Positions 1 to 48,091 of a stretch of DNA of 64,000 nt are shown here, piece after piece. The position numbers were made by a program, and so were the translations under genes. This DNA is from a virus (Duplodnaviria > Heunggongvirae > Uroviricota > Caudoviricetes). Under the pieces are notes generated by a model. The model was not told where the DNA came from and ran no database searches. It saw only the letters and a program-made list of their open reading frames with translations. The DNA lies in IMG/VR virus record IMGVR_UViG_2923350032_000001, positions 750 to 64,749 of that record; one strand, written 5' to 3'. The number at the start of each line of letters is the position of its first letter. Positions within the stretch are counted from its first letter, which is position 1.

Positions 1-1553
1 ATTGCGTGATTTCCTGAATACGCATGGGATGAAGAAACGCCTGCTGATTTTCAGCCGCACTTAGTTTTTTCTCGTCAGTTTCTGTCTCTAAAGACTTAAA
101 TTGTGGCCGCACATCGTTGTAGTCTACCTTGAATTTGAGCACTTTTTCGTCACGAATCGCATCGGTAATTACATACGAATGCAATTCACGACCAAATACG
201 CTGGCGGTTGTTTCTGAGCCTAAGGCGTTTTCCGGGAAAATAGGGGTACCGGTAAAACCAAACTGATAATAGCGTTTGAATTTCTTCTTCAGGTTTTTCT
301 GCGCTTCTCCAAACTGGCTGCGGTGGCATTCATCAAATATAAACACCACTTGCTGATTGTATACAGGCAGGTCGCTTTCTGCTTTCATCAGGTTATTAAG
401 TTTCTGAATAGTGGTGACGATAATTTGTTATCGTCCTTATCCAGATTTCGTTTAAGACCTGCGGTATTTTCCGAGCCGTTGACGCTGTCTGGCGAAAAAC
501 GCTGATATTCCTTCATGGTCTGGTAATCGAGGTCTTTCCTGTCGACCACGAAGAAGACTTTATCAATAAAGTCCAGTTCAGTTGCCAGACGCGCGGCTTT
601 AAAGCTGGTCAGTGTTTTACCGGAACCGGTGGTGTGCCAGATAAAGCCACCGCTTTCCGGTTTTGACCAGTTCTTCGCTGTAAAGGAACTCTTAATTTTC
701 CACAGAATGCGCTCGGTGGCGGCAATCTGGTACGGTCGCATCACCAGTAGCGTCTGACTACTGTCAAAAACGCTGTAGTTCACCAGAACATTCAGCAGAG
801 TATGTTTCTGGAAAAAGTAGCGGTAAAGTCTTTGAGGTCTTTAATCAGCGTGTTGTCTGATTTCGCCCAGTTCATGGTGAAGTCAAAACTGTTTTTATCG
901 CGCTTTGTCGTGTTGGCAAAATAACGGGTATCGGTGCCGTTAGAAATGACAAACAGTTGCAGATACTTAAACAGGGAATTTTCGCTGTTAAAACTCTCTT
1001 TACTGTAACGATGTATCTGGTTGAAAGCCTCACGAATCGCCACGCCGCGCTTTTTCAGTTCGATTTGCACCAGCGGCAAGCCATTAACCAGGATCGTGAC
1101 GTCATAACGGTTAGCGTGAGAGCCTGCCTGTTCAAATTGCTGGATAATCTGCACCTTATTGCGCATGAGATTCTTTTTATCTATCAAATAGATGTTCTCA
1201 AGTCGCTCGTCATCAAAAATAAAGTCGCAAATATAGTCGATATGGATTTTACGGGTCTTATCCAGAATGCCATCGCTCGGGTTGTCCAGATACTGCTCCG
1301 TGAAACGCCGCCATTCGCTGTCATTAAACACCACACCATTGAGGCTCTGAAGCTGTTCCCGAACATTGGCCAGCATCTCTGACTGAGATTTTACGGCTAT
1401 AAATTCATAGCCCTGATTTTGCAGGTCCTGAATCAGTTCACGTTCCAGGTCCGATTCGCTCTGGTAGCTGTCGCCTGTTGGTTCAGCTTTGATGTACTTA
1501 TCAAGAATGATAAAGTTATTGGATTCAGCAATGGTGTGTGTCTGATGAGTCAT
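1..1553 (-). pseudogene. hsdR: Type I restriction enzyme R subunit (HsdR), N-terminal nuclease domain plus helicase motifs I (GSGKT) and II (DECH); runs off window start; frame broken at two homopolymer runs
   Basis: ORFs 792-1553 and 388-783 plus unlisted frame 1-387 translate to contiguous HsdR-like sequence ([24 protein letters not shown]) only if single-base shifts near 811-815 and 413-420 are allowed. Confidence 0.7.
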
Positions 1554-1674
1554 AGCGCATCCTTTGTGCCGTTTGGCAAGGGCCGGAAGGGGGTTAATGG
1601 TGACTTCCAGCGTGTAAAAAATGGTCTATATACTGACCGGATGTTAAGGTGATCCGGTCGGTAGCAATGGTCAA

Positions 1675-2805
1675 TTAATTACTGACAGTTTCAGGTTTCG
1701 GGAAACTGAACAGTAAATCACGGTAGTATTCGTATTGTTTCTGGCGCAACTCGATTTCACGCGGGAGACCTTCAGTGATGGAGTTGGTCAGGGTGTCGAA
1801 TTTATCGAGTATTTCGACAATGCGAGCTTGTTCTTCTGAAGGTGGTACAGGTATTGGGAATTTTAAAAACATTGGTCGACGAAGTGAGGTAACCGATGAA
1901 CTTACTGATGCTTTTTGAATATAGGTAAAAAAATATGCTGTTATATAGTGATATACAAATCGCGGATTCATAAATGCATTTGGGACAATACGATATGCTC
2001 TCTGATGCAAAGCATATTTACCTTTAGCATAATGAAATACCTTCCCCACCCCGGCGCCATCTCCAGCCGTAATGATTGCTGTTTCATCAAAATCAAATAC
2101 ATTTAACTTTAATGGTTCACGTCCACGTGCATAAAAAATATATTTGCCATGTTCTATAGCATCTTGCGTATCATGGTTACCTGTTCCTATAACAGCCACT
2201 TCCCCCAAAGTCTTCCACTCAACCTCACCCTCTTTAAAACTCAACAACTGGTCGCGATAGTAATTGTACTGTTTTTTACGCATGTTAAGCTCAGCGGTAA
2301 GCTCAGCGGTAAGTGCAGTAAATTTATCCAGAATCCGAACGATTTCAGACTGGATGGCAAGGGATTTTTCTGGGGTATCCGGGCAGGGGATTGGTATCAA
2401 AATAGGTGATACATCACGTGGATAAACATGCGGAACACCACCACCACTCTTAAACTCATGGAGTTGTTGTTGCATATTCATCAAAAAATGATAGCAATAT
2501 CGTGGTAACAAAATATTATGAGGTTTTACAGTAAATGCATCCGATACGAAAATTGGTTCCTCCCACCAACTAACGAATCCCGCATACGCACCAGAACCTG
2601 CGATAACAATTGTTTGTCCGTCGCGATTACTAGTATTATGATAATAAGCTGGTGTACGTCCGCCAGCGACTACGGGGATGGTTCCATCAATAACATCTTT
2701 TTTTGTAATTGATGTGCCTCGCTTTAGTTCAGCTATACTGCCTAGTGTTTTCCACTCAACCTCAACCCCATCCAGCAATTTTTCCAGATAACTCATCTCG
2801 CTCAT
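1675..2805 (-). CDS. hsdS: Type I RM specificity subunit HsdS
   Basis: 376-aa ORF between hsdM and hsdR with two TRD-like halves and central conserved TAEL-TAEL repeat; overlaps hsdM stop. Confidence 0.9.
2289..2312. repeat. two tandem 12-bp units (GCTCAGCGGTAA) encoding TAEL-TAEL in the hsdS central region
   Basis: direct repeat read in sequence; a degenerate third unit follows. Confidence 0.8.
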
Positions 2806-4364
2806 TTCTGCACCTCGCAGCCTTCAATTTCAGCCACAATCGCATCAATATCTTTGCGCAACTGGTCGATTTTGCTGACCGTGATTTTCAGCTCTGCATT
2901 CAACTCAGCGATATCGATAATTTCGCGAGTATCTTTCGCTTCAACATAGCTGCTCACCGACAGGTTATAGTCATTAGCGACAACGGCTTCAAACGCGACA
3001 GATTTCGCCAGATGGGCAACATCTTCCTTGCTGGCAAATACCTGCATAATCTGTTCGATATGAGCATCGGTCAGAATGTTGTTGTTAGTCTCTTTTTTGA
3101 ACAGTTCGCTGGCATCAATAAACTGAACTTTGGTATCCGTTTTATGTTTAGACAGCACCAGAATATTGACGGCAATAGTGGTGCCAAAGAACAGATTCGG
3201 TGCCAGTGAAATCACGGTTTCGACATAGTTATTATCAACCAGATACTGACGGATTTTCTGCTCCGCGCCGCCACGGTAAAAAATACCCGGGAAGCAAACA
3301 ATCGCAGCACGACCTTTGGCAGAAAGATAGTTCAGCGCATGTAGTACAAAGGCGAAGTCAGCTTTTGATTTGGGGGCCAGAACGCCAGCCGGGGCAAAAC
3401 GCTCATCGTTAATCAGAGTCGGGTCATCGCTGCCAATCCATTTCACCGAATACGGCGGGTTAGAAACGATGGCATCAAACGGTTTTTCATCTCTGAAGTG
3501 CGGTTCAGTCAGCGTATTGCCCAGCTTGATATCAAACTTGTCGTAGTTGATGTTGTGCAAAAACATGTTCATACGCGCCAGGTTATAGGTCGTATGGTTG
3601 ATTTCCTGACCAAAAAAACCTTCTTCGATGATATGGTCATCAAACTGTTTTTTAGCCTGCAACAACAGCGAACCGGAGCCTGCTGCCGGGTCGTAGATTT
3701 TGTTAACGTGGGTCTGCCCGTGCATAGCCAGTTGTGCAATCAGCTTAGAGACGTGCTGCGGTGTAAAGAACTCGCCGCCTGACTTACCGGCATTCGCCGC
3801 ATAGTTAGAAATCAGGAACTCATAGGCGTCACCGAACAGGTCAATCTGATGTTCGTGGAAGTCACCAAGTTTTAGCCCTTCAACCCCTTTCAGAACTGCA
3901 GCCAGGCGGGCATTTTTATCTTTAACGGTGTTACCCAGGCGGTTACTGGTAGTATCGAAATCAGCAAACAAACCTTTGATGTCAGCTTCTGAAGGGTAAC
4001 CGTAAGCAGAACTTTCGATAGCAACGAAGATGCTGTTTAAATCCGCATTCAGTCTGTCATTGGTATTTGCTTTCGCAGCTACGTTGCAGAAAAGCTGACT
4101 GGGGTAGATGAAGTAACCTTTGGTTTTGATGGCATCGTCTTTAATGTCATCAGTAATTACGCTGTCATCCAGTTTCGCATAACAGATACTGTCATCACCG
4201 GCTTCAATATAGCTGGAAAAATTTTCGCTGATAAAACGGTAAAAAAGCGCGCCCAAAACGTACTGCTTAAAATCCCATCCATCGACTGAACCCCTGACAT
4301 CGTTAGCAATTTGCCAGATTTGACGATGAAGCTCTGCACGTTGTTGAATACTTGTCATTTTCAT
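2802..4364 (-). CDS. hsdM: Type I RM N6-adenine DNA methyltransferase HsdM
   Basis: 520-aa ORF with NPPY catalytic motif ([10 protein letters not shown]) and AdoMet-binding region ([10 protein letters not shown]). Confidence 0.92.
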
Positions 4365-4540
4365 CCACTTATTTCAGGTTTATGTAATTGGCGGTGATTC
4401 TACAGCAACTTGGATGCTTTAGCAGTTCGGACATTAGGCTACGAATGACCTGCCTAGAGGTTTGTTAAGCCGCAAAGTGCTGGTGCTTTATGTCTGTGAA
4501 GTTTATAATTGTGTACACATAACGAGTACACGAGGTGTTT

Positions 4541-4762
4541 ATGCAATCCATTAACTTCCGTACCGCGCGCGGCAACCTTTCTGAAGTGCTCAACAATGTT
4601 GAGGCCGGGGAAGAGGTTGAAATCACCCGCAGAGGCCGTGAGCCAGCAGTAATTGTCAGCAAGGCTACTTTCGAAGCCTACAAAAAAGCGGCGCTGGATG
4701 CTGAATTTGCATCCCTGTTTGACACCCTGGACTCCACCAACAAGGAACTGGTTAACCGATAA
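4541..4762 (+). CDS. phd: Phd antitoxin (prevent host death)
   Basis: 73-aa product [32 protein letters not shown]... recognised as P1 Phd; stop overlaps doc start. Confidence 0.95.
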
Positions 4763-42241: not shown

Positions 42242-42258
42242 ATTGCTCTAATAAATAT
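42242..42258 (+). promoter_or_regulatory. C1 operator upstream of the hrdC-dmt operon
   Basis: ATTGCTCTAATAAATAT. Confidence 0.65.
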
Positions 42259-42330
42259 TGTTTTTTTATATCGTGTTTTCGGTACCATTCAGGCATCGCC
42301 CTTCAATGGGCATTAGTTAGGAGTCGTCAG

Positions 42331-42615: not shown

Positions 42616-43513
42616 GCACTGGAAAAACATTACTATTTATAAACTTTCTCGTGAGGCGGATCTGACCGACTTAGAAGATAAAAAGAAAATGATCCTTTTC
42701 ACGCCATGCGGTAGTCAGGATATGGCCAAGTTCGGTTTTGTATCGCCATTTGGTGATAATTCCGAAGTTATCGCTATGCATGGAAATGGTTTTATCCTTG
42801 TTGAAGCAAAGCGCGAAACAAAAATTCTTCCCCCGCCGGTTATCCAGCGAGCTATTCAAGAAAAAATTGAAAAACTTGAGCAAGAACAAGCGCGTAAACT
42901 GAAGAAAACAGAGAAGGACTCCCTGAAAGACGAAGTTCTGCATTCTCTTCTGCCACGGGCTTTTTCAAAGTTTTCTGTTATCCAGGCGATCTACGACGGT
43001 TCAACTAAACGTATCTATATCAATGCCAGCGCGCGGCAGGCAGAGGATATGCTCGCGCTTATGCGTAAATCTCTGGGTTCTCTTCCTGTTGTTCCCCTAA
43101 GTGTTGAAAATCCCATTGAATTAACGCTGACCGACTGGGTACGTGATGGTAGTGCTCCACAGGGATTTCAAATGGGGGATGCGGCAGAACTTAAGGCAGT
43201 GCTTGAGGATGGCGGTATTGCCCGAGTGAAAAAGCAGGACTTGGGAAGTGATGAAATATCCACACACCTGGAAGCTGGCAAGCTCGTCACTAAGTTGGCA
43301 CTCGACTGGCAGAACCGCATTAAATTTACACTGGACCATAACTTCAGCCTTACCAGCGTCAAATTTGCGGATGAATTGCTTGAGCAGAACTCTGATATTG
43401 ATAGTGAAGATGTTGCGCAGCGACTGGACGCAGATTTCTTCCTATTGACCAGTGAAATTTCGTGCCTGGTTGATGCTCTGGTAAATGCCCTTGGTGGAGA
43501 GGCTAAGCAGTGA
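42608..43513 (+). CDS. hrdC: RdgC-like recombination-associated protein
   Basis: RdgC-like sequence ...[13 protein letters not shown]...[21 protein letters not shown]...ALDWQNRI...; start placed at Met 42608. Confidence 0.85.
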
Positions 43514-46500
43514 AAGAGCTGTGCTATGGATCTGTTTGCAGTGGAATTGAAGCCGCGAGTATTGCCTGGGAACCGTTGGGTATGCGTCCGGTTTGGTTTG
43601 CTGAAATCGAGCCTTTTCCATCGGCCGTTCTTGCGCTCCGCTGGCCCCATGTCGCCAACCTTGGCGACATGACAAAACTTGCCAAAAAAGTCTTGGCTGG
43701 GGAAATCGAATCCCCTGACGTGCTCGTCGGGGGAACACCATGTTTTACCGCGGGGCATATGGTTCTTTGTAAAAATGGTTATAAACCAATAGAAGATATT
43801 TGCCCTGGCGATTACGTAGTCAGTCATCTCGGGCGGTTACAACAAGTAAAAAGAGTTGGTTCAAAAATAGCTAATACGGGGTTACTTAATGCCGTTGGGC
43901 AGCCTTTAGGTATAAGAACAACCAATGACCATCCCTTCCTGGCGGTTCGGTGGAAAGCCCAAAACACCCGGAAAAATGGCACATATTTTAAGAGAGAGTT
44001 GTTGTCTGAACCGGAATGGCGAGCAGCATGTGATATGCCGGGATATCAATGGTGCGCTCTAACTAATTTCAATATTGCATCTCCAGATATTTGTTCTCGG
44101 TTCTTGTCTGAAGAACAGGCTATGTATCTTGCGGGCGCTTATGTTGGCGATGGATATATTAGGAGATGGAGAGGTAAATCTAAGAAGGCGGTTGTTTTTG
44201 GCATAAATTGCCAGAAATTGAGAAAGTTTCATTGCCGCATACCAGAAAACATATTTTCCGTGGCAAGCGAAATCCGAGGGAGCATCAAAGTAACCTTGAA
44301 TGATACGTGTTATGCCAATTGGCTTAATGAACATTTTGGCGAGTTAAGCCATGCTAAGCGTATCCCTGCATGGGTGATGTCGCATCCATTGCGTCATGTG
44401 TTTTTACAAGGCTATCTTGATACTGATGGGACACCAAGTGGTAAAGCGGGATTTAGAATTAATAGTGTTAGTCCTGCGCTTGCTTGGGGCGTTGCGGGGT
44501 TGTCACAGACTTGTGGTTATGTTTCTTCGGTCAGCTTTATTGAAGTTGAGCCCAAAAAAGTGATCGAGGATCGCGTGGTAAATCAACGGAATTATTATCA
44601 GGTAACAATCTGCCCGCAGAAATTGTCACGTAAATCAAGATTGGCTCATGGAATGCTTTTACGAACAGTCAAAGAGTTTAAATCGGTAGGCCTAGATACT
44701 GTATACAACATAGAAGTCGAAGGTGATCATTCCTATATCCTCAATGGTGCGGTGGTCCATAACTGTCAGGCATTCAGTATCGCGGGCTTACGTGGTGGGC
44801 TTGATGATGAACGCGGCGCGCTAACTTTGAAGTATGTGGAGCTTGCAAATGCAATTGACGACAAACGGTCTGAGTCCTTCCTCAAACCGACAGTTATCGT
44901 CTGGGAAAATGTCCCAGGAGTCCTGTCATCGGCAGATAACGCCTTCGGATGTTTCCTTGCCGGATTGGCTGGAGAAGATGCGCCATTTGAACCAGGTGAT
45001 CGACCTGAATCAGGAAAAAGTAACGCGTTCTGGCGGTGGGATGGCAAAACCGGTTGCCATGCTCCAAAGTGGCCGCAGTGTGGTTGTATTTATGGACCGC
45101 AGCGAAAGGTGGCCTGGAGAATCCTTGATGCCCAATACTTCGGAGTGGCACAACGACGCCGACGCGTGTTTGTTGTCGCAAGTGCTCGAACAGACCTCGA
45201 TCCCGCAACGGTACTTTTTGAGTTCGAAGGCGAGCGCCGGGATATTGCGCCGAGCAGAGGCGAGGGGAAGGAAACTACCAGATATACTTCAAACATCGCT
45301 ATCAGATCTTGCGATGATACAAACATAATTGCCATGGCACATGGGCAAGGAGGGGCTGAGATAAAAACCGATAATTCGGCACCAACTTTGACATGTAACC
45401 ATGAAGCACCAATTGTATTGCTCGGCGACGATAGAATGCGCCGTCTTACCCCTGTCGAATGTGAAAGGCTGCAAGGTTTTCCTGATTGGCATACGTTGAT
45501 CCCTACGGGAAAGCGTAAAAAAGTTTCTTCAGATGAACTGGCATACCTTCGCAATAACTATCCTGATTTAAACGAAGAAGAGGCCGCGATGCTTGCAGCT
45601 GACGGACCGCGTTACAAAGCGATCGGAAATAGTATGGCAATACCAGTAATGCGCTGGATTGGCGATCGGATTACTAAGGCTGCATGTCGGCAAAAAGAAG
45701 GGAGTGAAACAAAAGAGCGAAAGGTTAAACCAGCGGCAGAATTCGAACGGCCCATATTCAAATGGGCTGGTGGAAAATTTGGTGTTCTGGAACAAATCTT
45801 TCGCTATTTGCCAGAAGGGAAGCGCCTGATTGAACCTTTCGTTGGTGGCGGAGCTGTCTTCATGAATGCCGGATATCAGGAAAATCTGCTAAATGATGTG
45901 AATGCTGACCTGATTAACTTTTACAAGACTCTGCAACGTGAGGCGCATTCACTTATCACTCTGGCACATCGTTTCTTCCTGTACTACAACACCCAGGAGG
46001 GATTCCTGGCAGTACGGAATGCGTTTAACAAACAAGTCTATGATGATTTACATCGCGCAGCGGCGTTTTTGTTCCTGAACCGACATTGTTTTAATGGATT
46101 GACGCGCTACAACCAGGCCGGTGAGTTCAATGTCGGGTATGGGAAGTATAAGTCTACGCATTTTCCATTACAGGAGATGGAAGCCTTCCTCGGTGCGGAA
46201 GGGCGGTCTGAGTTTGTATGCGGTGATTTTGCAGCGGTGATTGAAGCTGCCGGAGAAGGAGATGTCATCTTTTGCGATCCGCCGTATGAACCGCTCCCCA
46301 ATACAGAGGGGTTCACGAACTATTCCGGTCATGACTTTAAGTTTGAAGAGCAAAAACGCCTGGTGTCTCTGTTGACGGATGCTCATCGCCGAGGTGCAAA
46401 GGTTCTCATTACTAACAGTGGCGCGCCAAACATCAGAGAACTTTATCAGGACAGTGGCTTCAGAGTGGAACCTCTTTTTGCCAGACGTTCTGTGTCTTGT

Positions 46501-46551
46501 AAGGGAGACACTCGTGGTGTTGCTCATGACGTTATAGCAATATTGCTCTAA
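43510..46551 (+). CDS. dmt: bifunctional DNA methyltransferase Dmt (N-terminal C5-cytosine MTase interrupted by an intein; C-terminal Dam-like N6-adenine MTase)
   Basis: C5 motifs [28 protein letters not shown]; Dam-like FVGGGAVF and DPPY; GTG start overlapping hrdC stop. Confidence 0.85.
43741..44763 (+). other. intein with LAGLIDADG homing-endonuclease domain, in frame within dmt
   Basis: starts Cys (CFTAGHMVL), block [18 protein letters not shown] and LQGYLDTDG, ends [21 protein letters not shown] followed by Cys; excision restores [12 protein letters not shown]. Confidence 0.8.
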
Positions 46552-46558
46552 TTAATTT
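46542..46558 (+). promoter_or_regulatory. C1 operator-like site overlapping the dmt stop codon
   Basis: ATTGCTCTAATtAATTT; dmt ends ...gca ata ttg ctc taa. Confidence 0.5.
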
Positions 46559-46736
46559 ATTAGTGTAATATCGAATCAATGAATCGTGATTTTTAGAGCG
46601 ATTTAGCTGTTAGCCGCGACAGGCGCGGCGGTAAGCATGGCTGGGCCTAGTCCTCCCAGACAAACCACCGAGTTGCCAGGTTGACCATGCGCCTAAGTGG
46701 CAACTCCGAAGTGCGTAACGAGCTTCCATCCAGTTT

Positions 46737-46915: not shown

Positions 46916-48091
46916 GTGACTATGTTAAGAGCAACAAAAGTACGTATATACCCCACTCCTGAACAGGCAGAGTACCTCAATGCCCAGTTCGGTGCAGTGC
47001 GCTTTGCGTACAACAAAGCTCTTCACATCAAAAAACATGCTTACCAGAGACACGGAGTAAATTTAAGTCCGCGTAACGATCTGAAACCGTTGTTGTCTGT
47101 GGCCAAAAAGTCCCGCAGGTATGCCTGGCTCAAAGAGTTTGATTCAATGGCATTGCAACAGGCGGTAATTAATCTTGATGTGGCATTTTCCAACTTTTTT
47201 AATCCGAAGCGGAAAGCGCGGTTCCCGACGTTTAAACGTAAACACGGAAAACAATCGAGCTATCACTGTGTCGGAGTTAAGGTGCTGGATAATGCCATCA
47301 AAATTCCTAAACTGTCCCCAATAGAAGCACGCCTTCATCGTGAACTTCATGGAAAGCTGAAAAGCATCACTATCACCCGTTCAGCAACGGGGAAATACTA
47401 TGCTTCAATTCTCTGTGATGATGGTCTGGAAGCTCCGGTAAAACCCACGTTGATATCAACAGTTACTGGCCTGGATATGGGGCTTGAGCACTACGCCATC
47501 AGGTCTGACGGAGCAAAAATTGCGAATCCCCGCCATCTCATCAATGCCAGCCGTAATCTGCGACGCAAACAAAAAGCGTTATCCCGCAAGCAAAAGGGAA
47601 GCGCGAATCGTAAAAAGGCCAGAATCCGTCTGGCAGCGTTACACGAACGGGTGGCTAATGCCCGTGCTGATTTTCAACACAAGCTCTCTCGTACAATTGT
47701 TGACGAAAACCAAGCGGTAATTGTCGAGACGCTGAAAACAGCCAACATGATGAAAAACCACAATCTGGCAAGAGTGATAGGTGATGCAGGCTGGCATAGC
47801 TTCATCACAAGGCTGGAGTACAAGGCGGCGGAAAAAGGCGCTCACCTGGTAAAACTCGACCAGTGGTTTGCCAGTTCGAAAACGTGTCATTGTTGTGGTT
47901 ACAAGATGTCGGAAATGCCACTTCATAAACGCATCTGGCGATGCTCTGAATGTGGTATTGAACATGACCGCGACATCAATGCGGCGCTCAACATCCGGCA
48001 AAAAGGAATACTGGAACTGAAGGCGGCGGGACTCGTCGTCTCCGCCCATGGAGGCCAGCGTAAATCCGTCGCACAGACGGTTGTGGCCTGA
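46916..48091 (+). CDS. tnpB: TnpB (OrfB) RuvC-like RNA-guided endonuclease family protein
   Basis: 391-aa ORF with OrfB_IS605 organisation, RuvC-like D/E/D positions and C-terminal zinc finger CHCCG...CSECG. Confidence 0.85.
   Translation: MTMLRATKVRIYPTPEQAEYLNAQFGAVRFAYNKALHIKKHAYQRHGVNLSPRNDLKPLLSVAKKSRRYAWLKEFDSMALQQAVINLDVAFSNFFNPKRKARFPTFKRKHGKQSSYHCVGVKVLDNAIKIPKLSPIEARLHRELHGKLKSITITRSATGKYYASILCDDGLEAPVKPTLISTVTGLDMGLEHYAIRSDGAKIANPRHLINASRNLRRKQKALSRKQKGSANRKKARIRLAALHERVANARADFQHKLSRTIVDENQAVIVETLKTANMMKNHNLARVIGDAGWHSFITRLEYKAAEKGAHLVKLDQWFASSKTCHCCGYKMSEMPLHKRIWRCSECGIEHDRDINAALNIRQKGILELKAAGLVVSAHGGQRKSVAQTVVA

Follow-up and report, generated by a model that had tools for sequence, protein, structure and literature searches.

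What interrupts the catalytic motif of a phage-encoded cytosine methyltransferase, and how could the enzyme be of any use with such an interruption? The question is raised by the dmt gene in a stretch of 64,000 nucleotides (nt) of P1-like Escherichia coli phage-plasmid sequence (positions 750 to 64,749 of IMG/VR record IMGVR_UViG_2923350032_000001), which as a whole is called here the window and whose numbering is used throughout. It corresponds, with an offset of 749 nt, to plasmid unnamed3 of E. coli HB-Coli0 (NZ_CP020936.1), which comes from a chicken in China. The gene is of the P1/P7 type, with an N-terminal C5-cytosine methyltransferase (C5-MTase) domain joined to a C-terminal domain of the Dam type, and motif IV of its C5-MTase half is split by 341 additional amino acids. 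In all likelihood the insert is a canonical class-1 LAGLIDADG homing intein lying directly before the catalytic cysteine of motif IV (GGTP/CQ, where the slash marks the junction), which would splice itself out of the precursor protein and home into dmt alleles devoid of it. We infer splicing and endonuclease activity from the features described below, and regard the element as very probably a functional homing intein.

An earlier note on this DNA had proposed an intein at 43741-44763, and its coordinates, reading frame and length proved to be exact. The translation of this segment comprises 341 stop-free codons running from CFTAGHMVL to ILNGAVVHN and followed by CQAFSIAG, and the opposite strand is full of stops. 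When aligned to the intein-free homologues P7 Dam (672 amino acids) and reference P1 Dmt (754 amino acids), a check that the note had suggested, the segment appears as an exact presence/absence of 341 residues between GGTP and CQAFSIAG and, at the DNA level, as an exact indel of 1023 nt, a multiple of three as had been claimed. Its subtraction from the 1013 residues encoded by the open reading frame (ORF) leaves 672, the length of P7 Dam and approximately the extein length that the note had anticipated. The motifs that it had listed (Cys1, TxxH, two LAGLIDADG motifs, and a terminal HN followed by Cys) are all there in canonical form, and the profile searches agree with them: Pfam Hint_2 is found at the N-terminus of the insert (29.6 bits, cut-off 28.4), Pfam LAGLIDADG_3 in its middle (35.1 bits, cut-off 22.5) and NCBIfam TIGR01443 (intein_Cterm) at its end (25.9-28.8 bits, cut-off 15.6). 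An insertion in frame, a block A cysteine, a TxxH block and a final HN with Cys+1 are the sequence features of a class-1 intein, and both LAGLIDADG motifs hold a conserved acidic residue. Judged from its sequence, therefore, the insert is a class-1 intein with a LAGLIDADG homing endonuclease, for which the profile evidence goes well beyond chance.

With regard to the interrupted enzyme, both halves of the fusion claimed in the note are recovered by domain profiles, with PF00145 for the C5-MTase and PF02086 and TIGR00571 for the Dam-like C-terminal domain. Once the insert is taken out in silico, PF00145 scores 130.2 bits instead of 109.3, in one contiguous match over profile positions 5-119, and the resulting 672-residue product has a contiguous C5-MTase motif IV, just as the note had supposed. 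In an alignment of this spliced sequence with M.HhaI, the Cys+1 of the intein falls on the PCQ cysteine, which is the catalytic nucleophile Cys81 of that enzyme. The +1 cysteine is therefore Dmt's own catalytic PCQ cysteine, and the insertion site had been correctly named. On these grounds it is predicted that the unspliced precursor cannot be an active C5-MTase, whereas the spliced product can.

A search of the PDB with the intein sequence gave as best match the Spl DnaX mini-intein (E = 0.0014), followed by the endonuclease domain of PI-PkoII (E = 0.027). Since sequence alone fails to tie the insert to a characterised intein, structure prediction and Foldseek comparison were needed. An AlphaFold2 model built from a 10-sequence alignment reached a predicted local distance difference test score (pLDDT) of 87.3 and a predicted template modelling score (pTM) of 0.86, and shows alternating helices and strands over model residues 138-306, in a numbering that counts a 14-residue extein flank. 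The top PDB matches of this model were PI-SceI (E = 1.8e-18), TliVMA, PhoVMA, PI-PfuI and PI-PkoII, and the next ones were the free LAGLIDADG enzymes I-SceI, I-DmoI and I-OnuI together with the mini-inteins Ssp DnaB, Mxe GyrA and gp41-1. In fold, the model joins a HINT domain to a LAGLIDADG endonuclease. As in the dmt intein, PI-SceI (encoded in S. cerevisiae VMA1) and the four other inteins heading the list have a HINT domain split by a two-motif LAGLIDADG endonuclease, and the chemistry of Cys1, terminal HN and Cys+1 is common to both; the Foldseek E values of this group range from 1.8e-18 to 4e-9 at a probability of 1.0, with a sequence identity of only 11-16%. On the other hand, their exteins are vacuolar ATPase (V-ATPase), ribonucleotide reductase and polymerase proteins, and their length is about 360-540 amino acids versus the 341 of the dmt intein. 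The Spl DnaX mini-intein (PDB 7cfv) resembles it in blocks F and G (VYNIEVE.DHS..NG..VHN) but lacks an endonuclease and has a different extein, and only its C-terminal 42 residues align.

The insert is not an isolated case. A search of 1.84 billion representative proteins yielded 192 matches at E <= 1e-30 and 1624 at E <= 1e-10. Among the relatives that align over their full length, 117 of 137 are flanked by P and CQ and several more by P and CT, flanks which are motif IV of C5-MTases; moreover, the PF00145 profile resumes at position 71 directly after the intein in seven of nine relatives tested, one of the nine (P0022) carrying a Dam fusion. In IMG/VR, 227 stretches encode relatives of 57-29% identity in varied phage C5-MTases, with the junctions GGTP/CQAFS, GGSP/CQDLS, GGFP/CQPFS, GFP/CQDIS and SVP/CQSFS. 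These inteins of other, mostly phage, C5-MTases, found on metagenomic and IMG/VR phage contigs and in Mannheimia haemolytica, have in common with that of dmt the point of insertion, the terminal blocks (CFTAGH... and ...VVHN/CQ) and a size of about 320-360 amino acids, and are, on that showing, its allelic relatives; their exteins are mostly stand-alone C5-MTases without Dam fusion, in contrast with the Dam-fused extein of the window. Across 141 aligned relatives (30-57% identity), hardly any variation is seen in the splicing residues or in the acidic residue of either LAGLIDADG motif, and either Cys or Ser occupies position +1 in all of the 130 aligned there. Such a family-wide conservation argues for selection on both the splicing and the endonuclease activities.

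Two members of the family look different. A partial protein of 306 amino acids (P0019) holds, at the same GGTP/CQ site, a mini-intein of about 130 residues that keeps blocks A, B, F and G without an endonuclease domain. In the relative from Mannheimia haemolytica (P0011; IMG/VR L045 and L046; 47% identity), found on 578 contigs and labelled 'Hint domain-containing protein', the intein is intact and the C-extein ends 20 amino acids past the splice site (CQSDKGGTVKASGG...), which suggests that the host methyltransferase has decayed with the intein preserved. Both cases would represent visible stages of the homing cycle.

Inteins in phage methylases are not without precedent. The mycobacteriophage DNMT-1 and DNMT-2 inteins lie in orphan phage methylases of the N6_N4_Mtase type (Kelley et al. 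2016, PMC5050341), and an actinophage methylase intein carries a LAGLIDADG endonuclease (Gosselin et al. 2023, PMC9957025); in both cases a patchy distribution and horizontal transfer between diverged methylase genes have been described (PMC5050341, PMC9957025). The hosts of those phages are Actinobacteria and the latter paper makes no mention of cytosine or C5, whereas the dmt intein belongs to an enterobacterial phage-plasmid and interrupts a C5-MTase at its catalytic PCQ cysteine. The main text of the intein survey by Novikova et al. (2016) does not mention methylases. Most literature matches concerned inteins as purification tags or split-protein work with adeno-associated virus (AAV), and neither for P1/P7 Dmt nor for any other C5-cytosine MTase was an intein found described in full-text literature that included few subscription journals and had InBase and REBASE outside its scope, which means not found rather than proven absent. 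In the same literature, no text was found that names or describes the inteins at the P/CQ site of other C5-MTases as such. The earlier note knew of no intein described in P1 Dmt or in a phage cytosine methyltransferase. In the sequence records, the insert occupies about 30% of P1-type dmt alleles, belongs to a large P/CQ family and has its domains automatically flagged in some entries. What seems to have gone unremarked is the catalytic cysteine of a C5-MTase as a site and P1 as a phage family; the intein itself is canonical, common and in part already annotated by machine.

Two other kinds of element were considered and rejected. Bacterial intein-like (BIL) domains are HINT domains of variable, often secreted proteins, without an endonuclease, and neither a conserved +1 nucleophile nor an active-site insertion is required of them. 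Such an identity is ruled out by the endonuclease domain, the conserved Cys+1 and the insertion in an active site, and BIL structures were only distant matches (2lwy, E = 0.62 by sequence; 6y75, E = 6e-3 by Foldseek). Nor can the insert be a group-I intron that houses an endonuclease ORF, since the frame runs through without a break and HINT blocks lie at either end.

The distribution of the insert among P1-like elements is patchy. Of 5426 complete E. coli genomes, 152 contain DNA at least 99% identical to the intein, in 153 records and at 148 places on plasmids and 5 on chromosomes. The same holds for 133 plasmids of PLSDB, 118 of them from Escherichia, 14 from Salmonella and 1 from Shigella. 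P1-type dmt, detected by the first 700 nt of the intein-less gene, was found in 492 E. coli genomes (339 contiguous) and 497 PLSDB plasmids (363 contiguous). About 27-31% of P1-type dmt alleles are therefore occupied by the intein and about 70% cleanly lack it, which is not what would be seen if the segment were a domain conserved among homologues and incapable of splicing, the outcome that the earlier note had named as fatal to its proposal. Among phage records, the intein is present in RCS47, vB_EcoM-Ro157c2YLVW and OP279344, independent complete genomes in which dmt is an uninterrupted ORF of 1013 or 1095 amino acids, and absent from reference P1, P7, SJ46 and JL22. The protein containing it is annotated as 'Dmt', 'DNA methyltransferase' or 'Dam family...methyltransferase', and automatic annotation flags Hint and LAGLIDADG domains in some records; these flags aside, no intein annotation was found in the records examined. 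One of the phage genomes, OP279344, is a laboratory P1vir stock from two studies of prokaryotic Argonautes (pAgo), deposited as 'P1 isolate del res del mod'; positions 1501-4542 of OP279344.1 hold an intein-containing dmt of the P7 type, and the stock differs at dmt from the P1 reference genome.

Traces of mobility were sought in 27 intein-containing and 71 intein-less alleles from the window, reference phages and IMG/VR contigs, which are redundant isolates whose counts are of sequences and not of independent events. The intein is open in all 27 copies, with 29 polymorphic sites. Its diversity among the alleles containing it is 0.56%, compared with 3.4% for the N-extein and 1.2-1.4% for the C-extein, which places it 2-6 times below its flanks; these estimates leave out L011 (IMGVR_UViG_2597489893_000002), an out-of-register allele that inflates the N-extein value. 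Its G+C content is 43.0%, with 54.5% in the N-extein and 49.0% in the C-extein. By these values the intein would be younger than the dmt backgrounds that carry it. In L011, 107 differences set the N-extein apart between -231 and about -80 nt, where it has lost register or is of unrelated sequence, and this part may have been rearranged or come from a different 5' end of the gene.

The flanks tell a similar story. At position 43740, the third position of the Pro codon and the last nt before the intein (-1), A is found in all 27 intein-containing alleles and T in all 71 intein-less ones. The association of flanking variants with the intein falls from 1.0 at this site to 0.85 at -22, 0.74 at -48, 0.78 at -104, 0.67 at -118 and 0.30 at -148, and is at most 0.15 beyond, a decay with distance expected of co-conversion tracts or of linkage eroded by recombination; several of the associated N-extein variants are almost never found in intein-less alleles. 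On the 3' side, the intein stands on at least two C-extein haplotypes which differ at 11 of their first 160 nt and are both common to intein-less alleles. The first 450 nt of the window C-extein (44764-45213) are identical to those of the intein-less reference P1, whereas the 26 other intein-containing alleles have other C-extein haplotypes, 24 of them with 11-13 differences from it in the first 160 nt; in the window allele, a recombination junction therefore lies no more than 23 nt from the 3' end of the intein. Altogether, low diversity, low G+C, a fixed junction variant and several extein backgrounds point to a recent horizontal spread. By these data, the intein has been repeatedly transferred, or repeatedly lost, between dmt backgrounds, and a drive by its endonuclease is what we infer behind this movement.

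How splicing and homing would proceed can be proposed from the residues involved and from the regulatory context. The C1-repressor operator Odmt is present ahead of the operon, and dmt, intein included, is therefore expected to be expressed only once C1 repression is lifted; by analogy with the P1 and P7 annotations, production of the intein endonuclease would be limited to infection or induction, and a second P1-like genome may be present during the same de-repressed period. Upon de-repression of the operon, a 1013-residue precursor would be translated, Cys1 would undergo an N-S acyl shift, and Cys+1, also the catalytic cysteine of the methyltransferase, would attack the thioester. Cyclisation of Asn341 with the help of His340 would then release the intein, and a final S-N shift would leave a 672-residue Dmt with an intact PCQ active site and a free 341-residue intein. 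The latter, by means of D137 and D229, would cut intein-less dmt at the sequence coding for motif IV, with a predicted site of about ...GGGGGTACGCCT/TGTCAGGCATTCAG...; in a cell harbouring two P1-like elements, repair templated on the intein-containing allele would copy the intein into the other one.

Several points weigh against this proposal. Experimentally characterised inteins are matched only weakly in sequence, at a best PDB E of 0.0014, and Pfam Intein_splicing remains below its cut-off (22.8 versus 35.8 bits). The population counts come from redundant isolates, the 15 non-synonymous and 14 synonymous polymorphisms of the intein, a ratio of about 1:1, suggest that constraint is only moderate, and ordinary homologous recombination among P1-like plasmids could, without an active endonuclease, yield both low diversity and mosaic flanks. 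It is thus possible, if rather doubtful in our judgement, that the intein splices but that its endonuclease is inactive or has no target, the patchiness being the outcome of vertical descent together with general homologous recombination or module shuffling. P1-like elements are mosaic around dmt, with swaps of the target-recognition region and patchy divergence of 1-3% (past dmt, indels put the sequences out of register, and that part did not enter the comparison), and the moderate constraint on the intein would suit such a history. However, both LAGLIDADG acidic residues are kept in the window and in at least 95% of the 141 diverged relatives, none of the 27 sampled alleles has the endonuclease deleted or frameshifted, and all 153 E. 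coli records with a match cover at least 80% of the intein, whereas the mini-intein P0019 at the same site indicates that the endonuclease is lost once constraint lapses. The diversity of the intein relative to its flanks, and the switch of the window allele to a C-extein haplotype of intein-less type so close to the junction, also speak against this alternative.

It is very unlikely that the insert is dead or domesticated, does not splice and is tolerated or serves as a linker, the C5 half being inactivated and only the C-terminal Dam domain, which methylates pac sites, being of importance. Only the Dam function of P1 is known to be required, and solely in Dam- hosts (PMC12707154); the C5 activity of Dmt is annotated merely as 'perhaps' in P1 and P7; a late promoter predicted in P7 sits 3' of the intein; and a G-to-W change by motif IV in reference P1 suggests that the C5 domain is dispensable in the laboratory. 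Such an insert would nonetheless have kept, in the window and throughout the family, all the residues needed for the four splicing steps, its 27 copies are open without exception, and in the alignment the extein motifs beside it are as conserved in intein-containing as in intein-less alleles. The chances are practically nil that the insert is the product of faulty assembly or annotation, or an endonuclease gene that stands alone or is borne by an intron. NZ_CP012497 does annotate the region as three pseudogene fragments, one of them a 'LAGLIDADG family homing endonuclease', but this split accompanies a frameshift in that record; the same ORF recurs in independent phage genomes, 133 plasmids and 152 complete E. 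coli genomes, and the insert is stop-free, has a length divisible by three and bears HINT blocks at its two ends. Sequence data, as far as they go, already refute this last explanation, and a homing intein that splices is the reading that we retain.

Whether the intein is more than a passenger is another matter, and a positive answer looks unlikely to us. With the catalytic cysteine interrupted by the intein, splicing could be a post-translational switch that sets the timing of 5-methylcytosine (m5C) against Dam methylation, delaying or conditioning the former, for instance by redox control through Cys1, Cys+1 and the 10 other cysteines of the intein. The endonuclease could also, or instead, be used against competitors, its targets being the dmt copies of intein-less P1-like elements that superinfect or share the cell, or further C5-MTase genes with the conserved motif-IV DNA. 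If so, phage-plasmids carrying the intein would gain an advantage beyond that of selfish homing.

Escherichia coli serves as the standard, supposedly intein-free host for work with inteins, and P1 as the classic transducing phage. About 30% of natural P1-type dmt genes, and with them about 3% of complete E. coli genomes, carry what appears to be an intact homing intein, and the natural intein-containing and intein-less alleles, which belong to the phage-host pair most tractable of those available, offer a genetically tractable phage-plasmid system to study homing, co-conversion and fitness cost. The large unnamed family at the PCQ cysteine of C5-MTases adds another active-site nucleophile to the targets of inteins. 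Annotation pipelines and predictions of the REBASE type should splice such proteins before classifying them, and methylome studies of P1-like plasmids should allow for an m5C activity that may depend on splicing.

The gene context is that of a P1 dmt. The gene is placed 3' of uhr and hrdC/rdgC, in the same order as in P1, and outside the intein its product has 97% amino-acid identity with P7 Dam; the N-terminal C5-MTase, the C-terminal Dam-type domain, the position 3' of uhr-hrdC and the C1 operator together identify it as Dmt. On its 3' side, the P1-like dmt module ends at the operator Oban. The coordinates of these elements and of the parts of the intein are collected in Table 1.

Table 1. 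Features of the dmt locus and of its predicted intein, in window coordinates
Feature	Position	Strand	Remarks
C1-repressor operator Odmt/Op(dam)	42242-42258	+	Exact 17-nt match to P1 and P7 annotation; 5' of the uhr-hrdC-dmt operon
Pdmt-like sigma-70 promoter	42259-42288	+	3 mismatches versus annotated Pdmt; adjoins Odmt
dmt ORF	43510-46551	+	GTG start; 1013 amino acids
N-extein	43510-43740	+	77 amino acids; C5-MTase motif I SVCSGIEA; last residues VLVGGTP
Intein	43741-44763	+	341 amino acids; HINT splicing domain split by LAGLIDADG homing-endonuclease domain
Block A	43741-43779	+	Cys1 (TGT, 43741-43743), predicted N-terminal splicing nucleophile; Cys in 141/141 aligned family members
Block B, TTNDHPF	43918-43938	+	T61-N-D-H64 (TxxH); T in 137/140 and H in 140/140 family members
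LAGLIDADG motif 1	44122-44160	+	Residues 128-140, GDG; putative catalytic D137; Pfam LAGLIDADG_3; weak sequence similarity to PI-PkoII endonuclease domain; D/E in 133/140 family members
LAGLIDADG motif 2	44398-44436	+	Residues 220-232, DTDG; putative catalytic D229; D in 139/141 family members
Blocks F and G	44698-44763	+	Ending VVHN341; H340 and N341 assigned to C-terminal cleavage (Asn cyclisation); TIGR01443; N in 130/130 family members
Cys+1 codon (TGT)	44764-44766	+	Predicted splicing +1 nucleophile and motif IV PCQ cysteine; C in 123/130, S in 7 family members
C-extein	44764-46551	+	Remaining C5-MTase domain (motifs IV-X, P7-type target-recognition region) and Dam-type N6-adenine MTase domain, from PF00145, PF02086 and TIGR00571 matches and alignment to P7 Dam; stop codon included
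LPdam2 late promoter	45521-45539	+	Prediction of the P7 annotators; exact 19-nt match; within dmt, 3' of the intein
Divalent C1 operator Oban	46542-46569		Overlaps dmt end; 1 mismatch per half-site versus P1/P7 annotation

Some further variation surrounds the intein. The target-recognition region of Dmt (window ~45270-45440, Dmt residues ~588-643) exists in two unrelated forms, a short P7-type one in the window, OP279344 and P7, and a P1-type one, longer by 82 amino acids, in P1 and RCS47. Each form is found with and without the intein, of whose presence it is independent, and the existence of two forms implies differing m5C specificities among P1-like elements. Just 3' of dmt and Oban, the window has an ORF of 391 amino acids for an RNA-guided endonuclease of the TnpB/InsQ family (46916-48091, + strand), at the position of which P1, P7 and RCS47 have tRNA-Asn and tRNA-Thr; unlike those, the window contains no tRNA between 40000 and 52000. 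In the E. coli plasmids NZ_CP077454.1 and NZ_CP102674.1, the 5' 700 nt of dmt are matched in pieces (49% coverage at 3 places and 81% at 2 places, respectively), which suggests other N-terminal insertions or rearrangements unrelated to the intein. With respect to the intein-less site, GGAACACCT is a variant of GGGGGTACGCCT/TGTCAGGCATTCAG. Finally, codon 74 of Dmt in reference P1 (NC_005856) has changed from GGG to TGG, giving VLVWGTP for the VLVGGTP of every other allele; this G-to-W change, equivalent to window 43729-43731 beside motif IV and found in one of 71 intein-less alleles, may have arisen in the laboratory and either abolish the C5-MTase activity or modify the predicted homing site.

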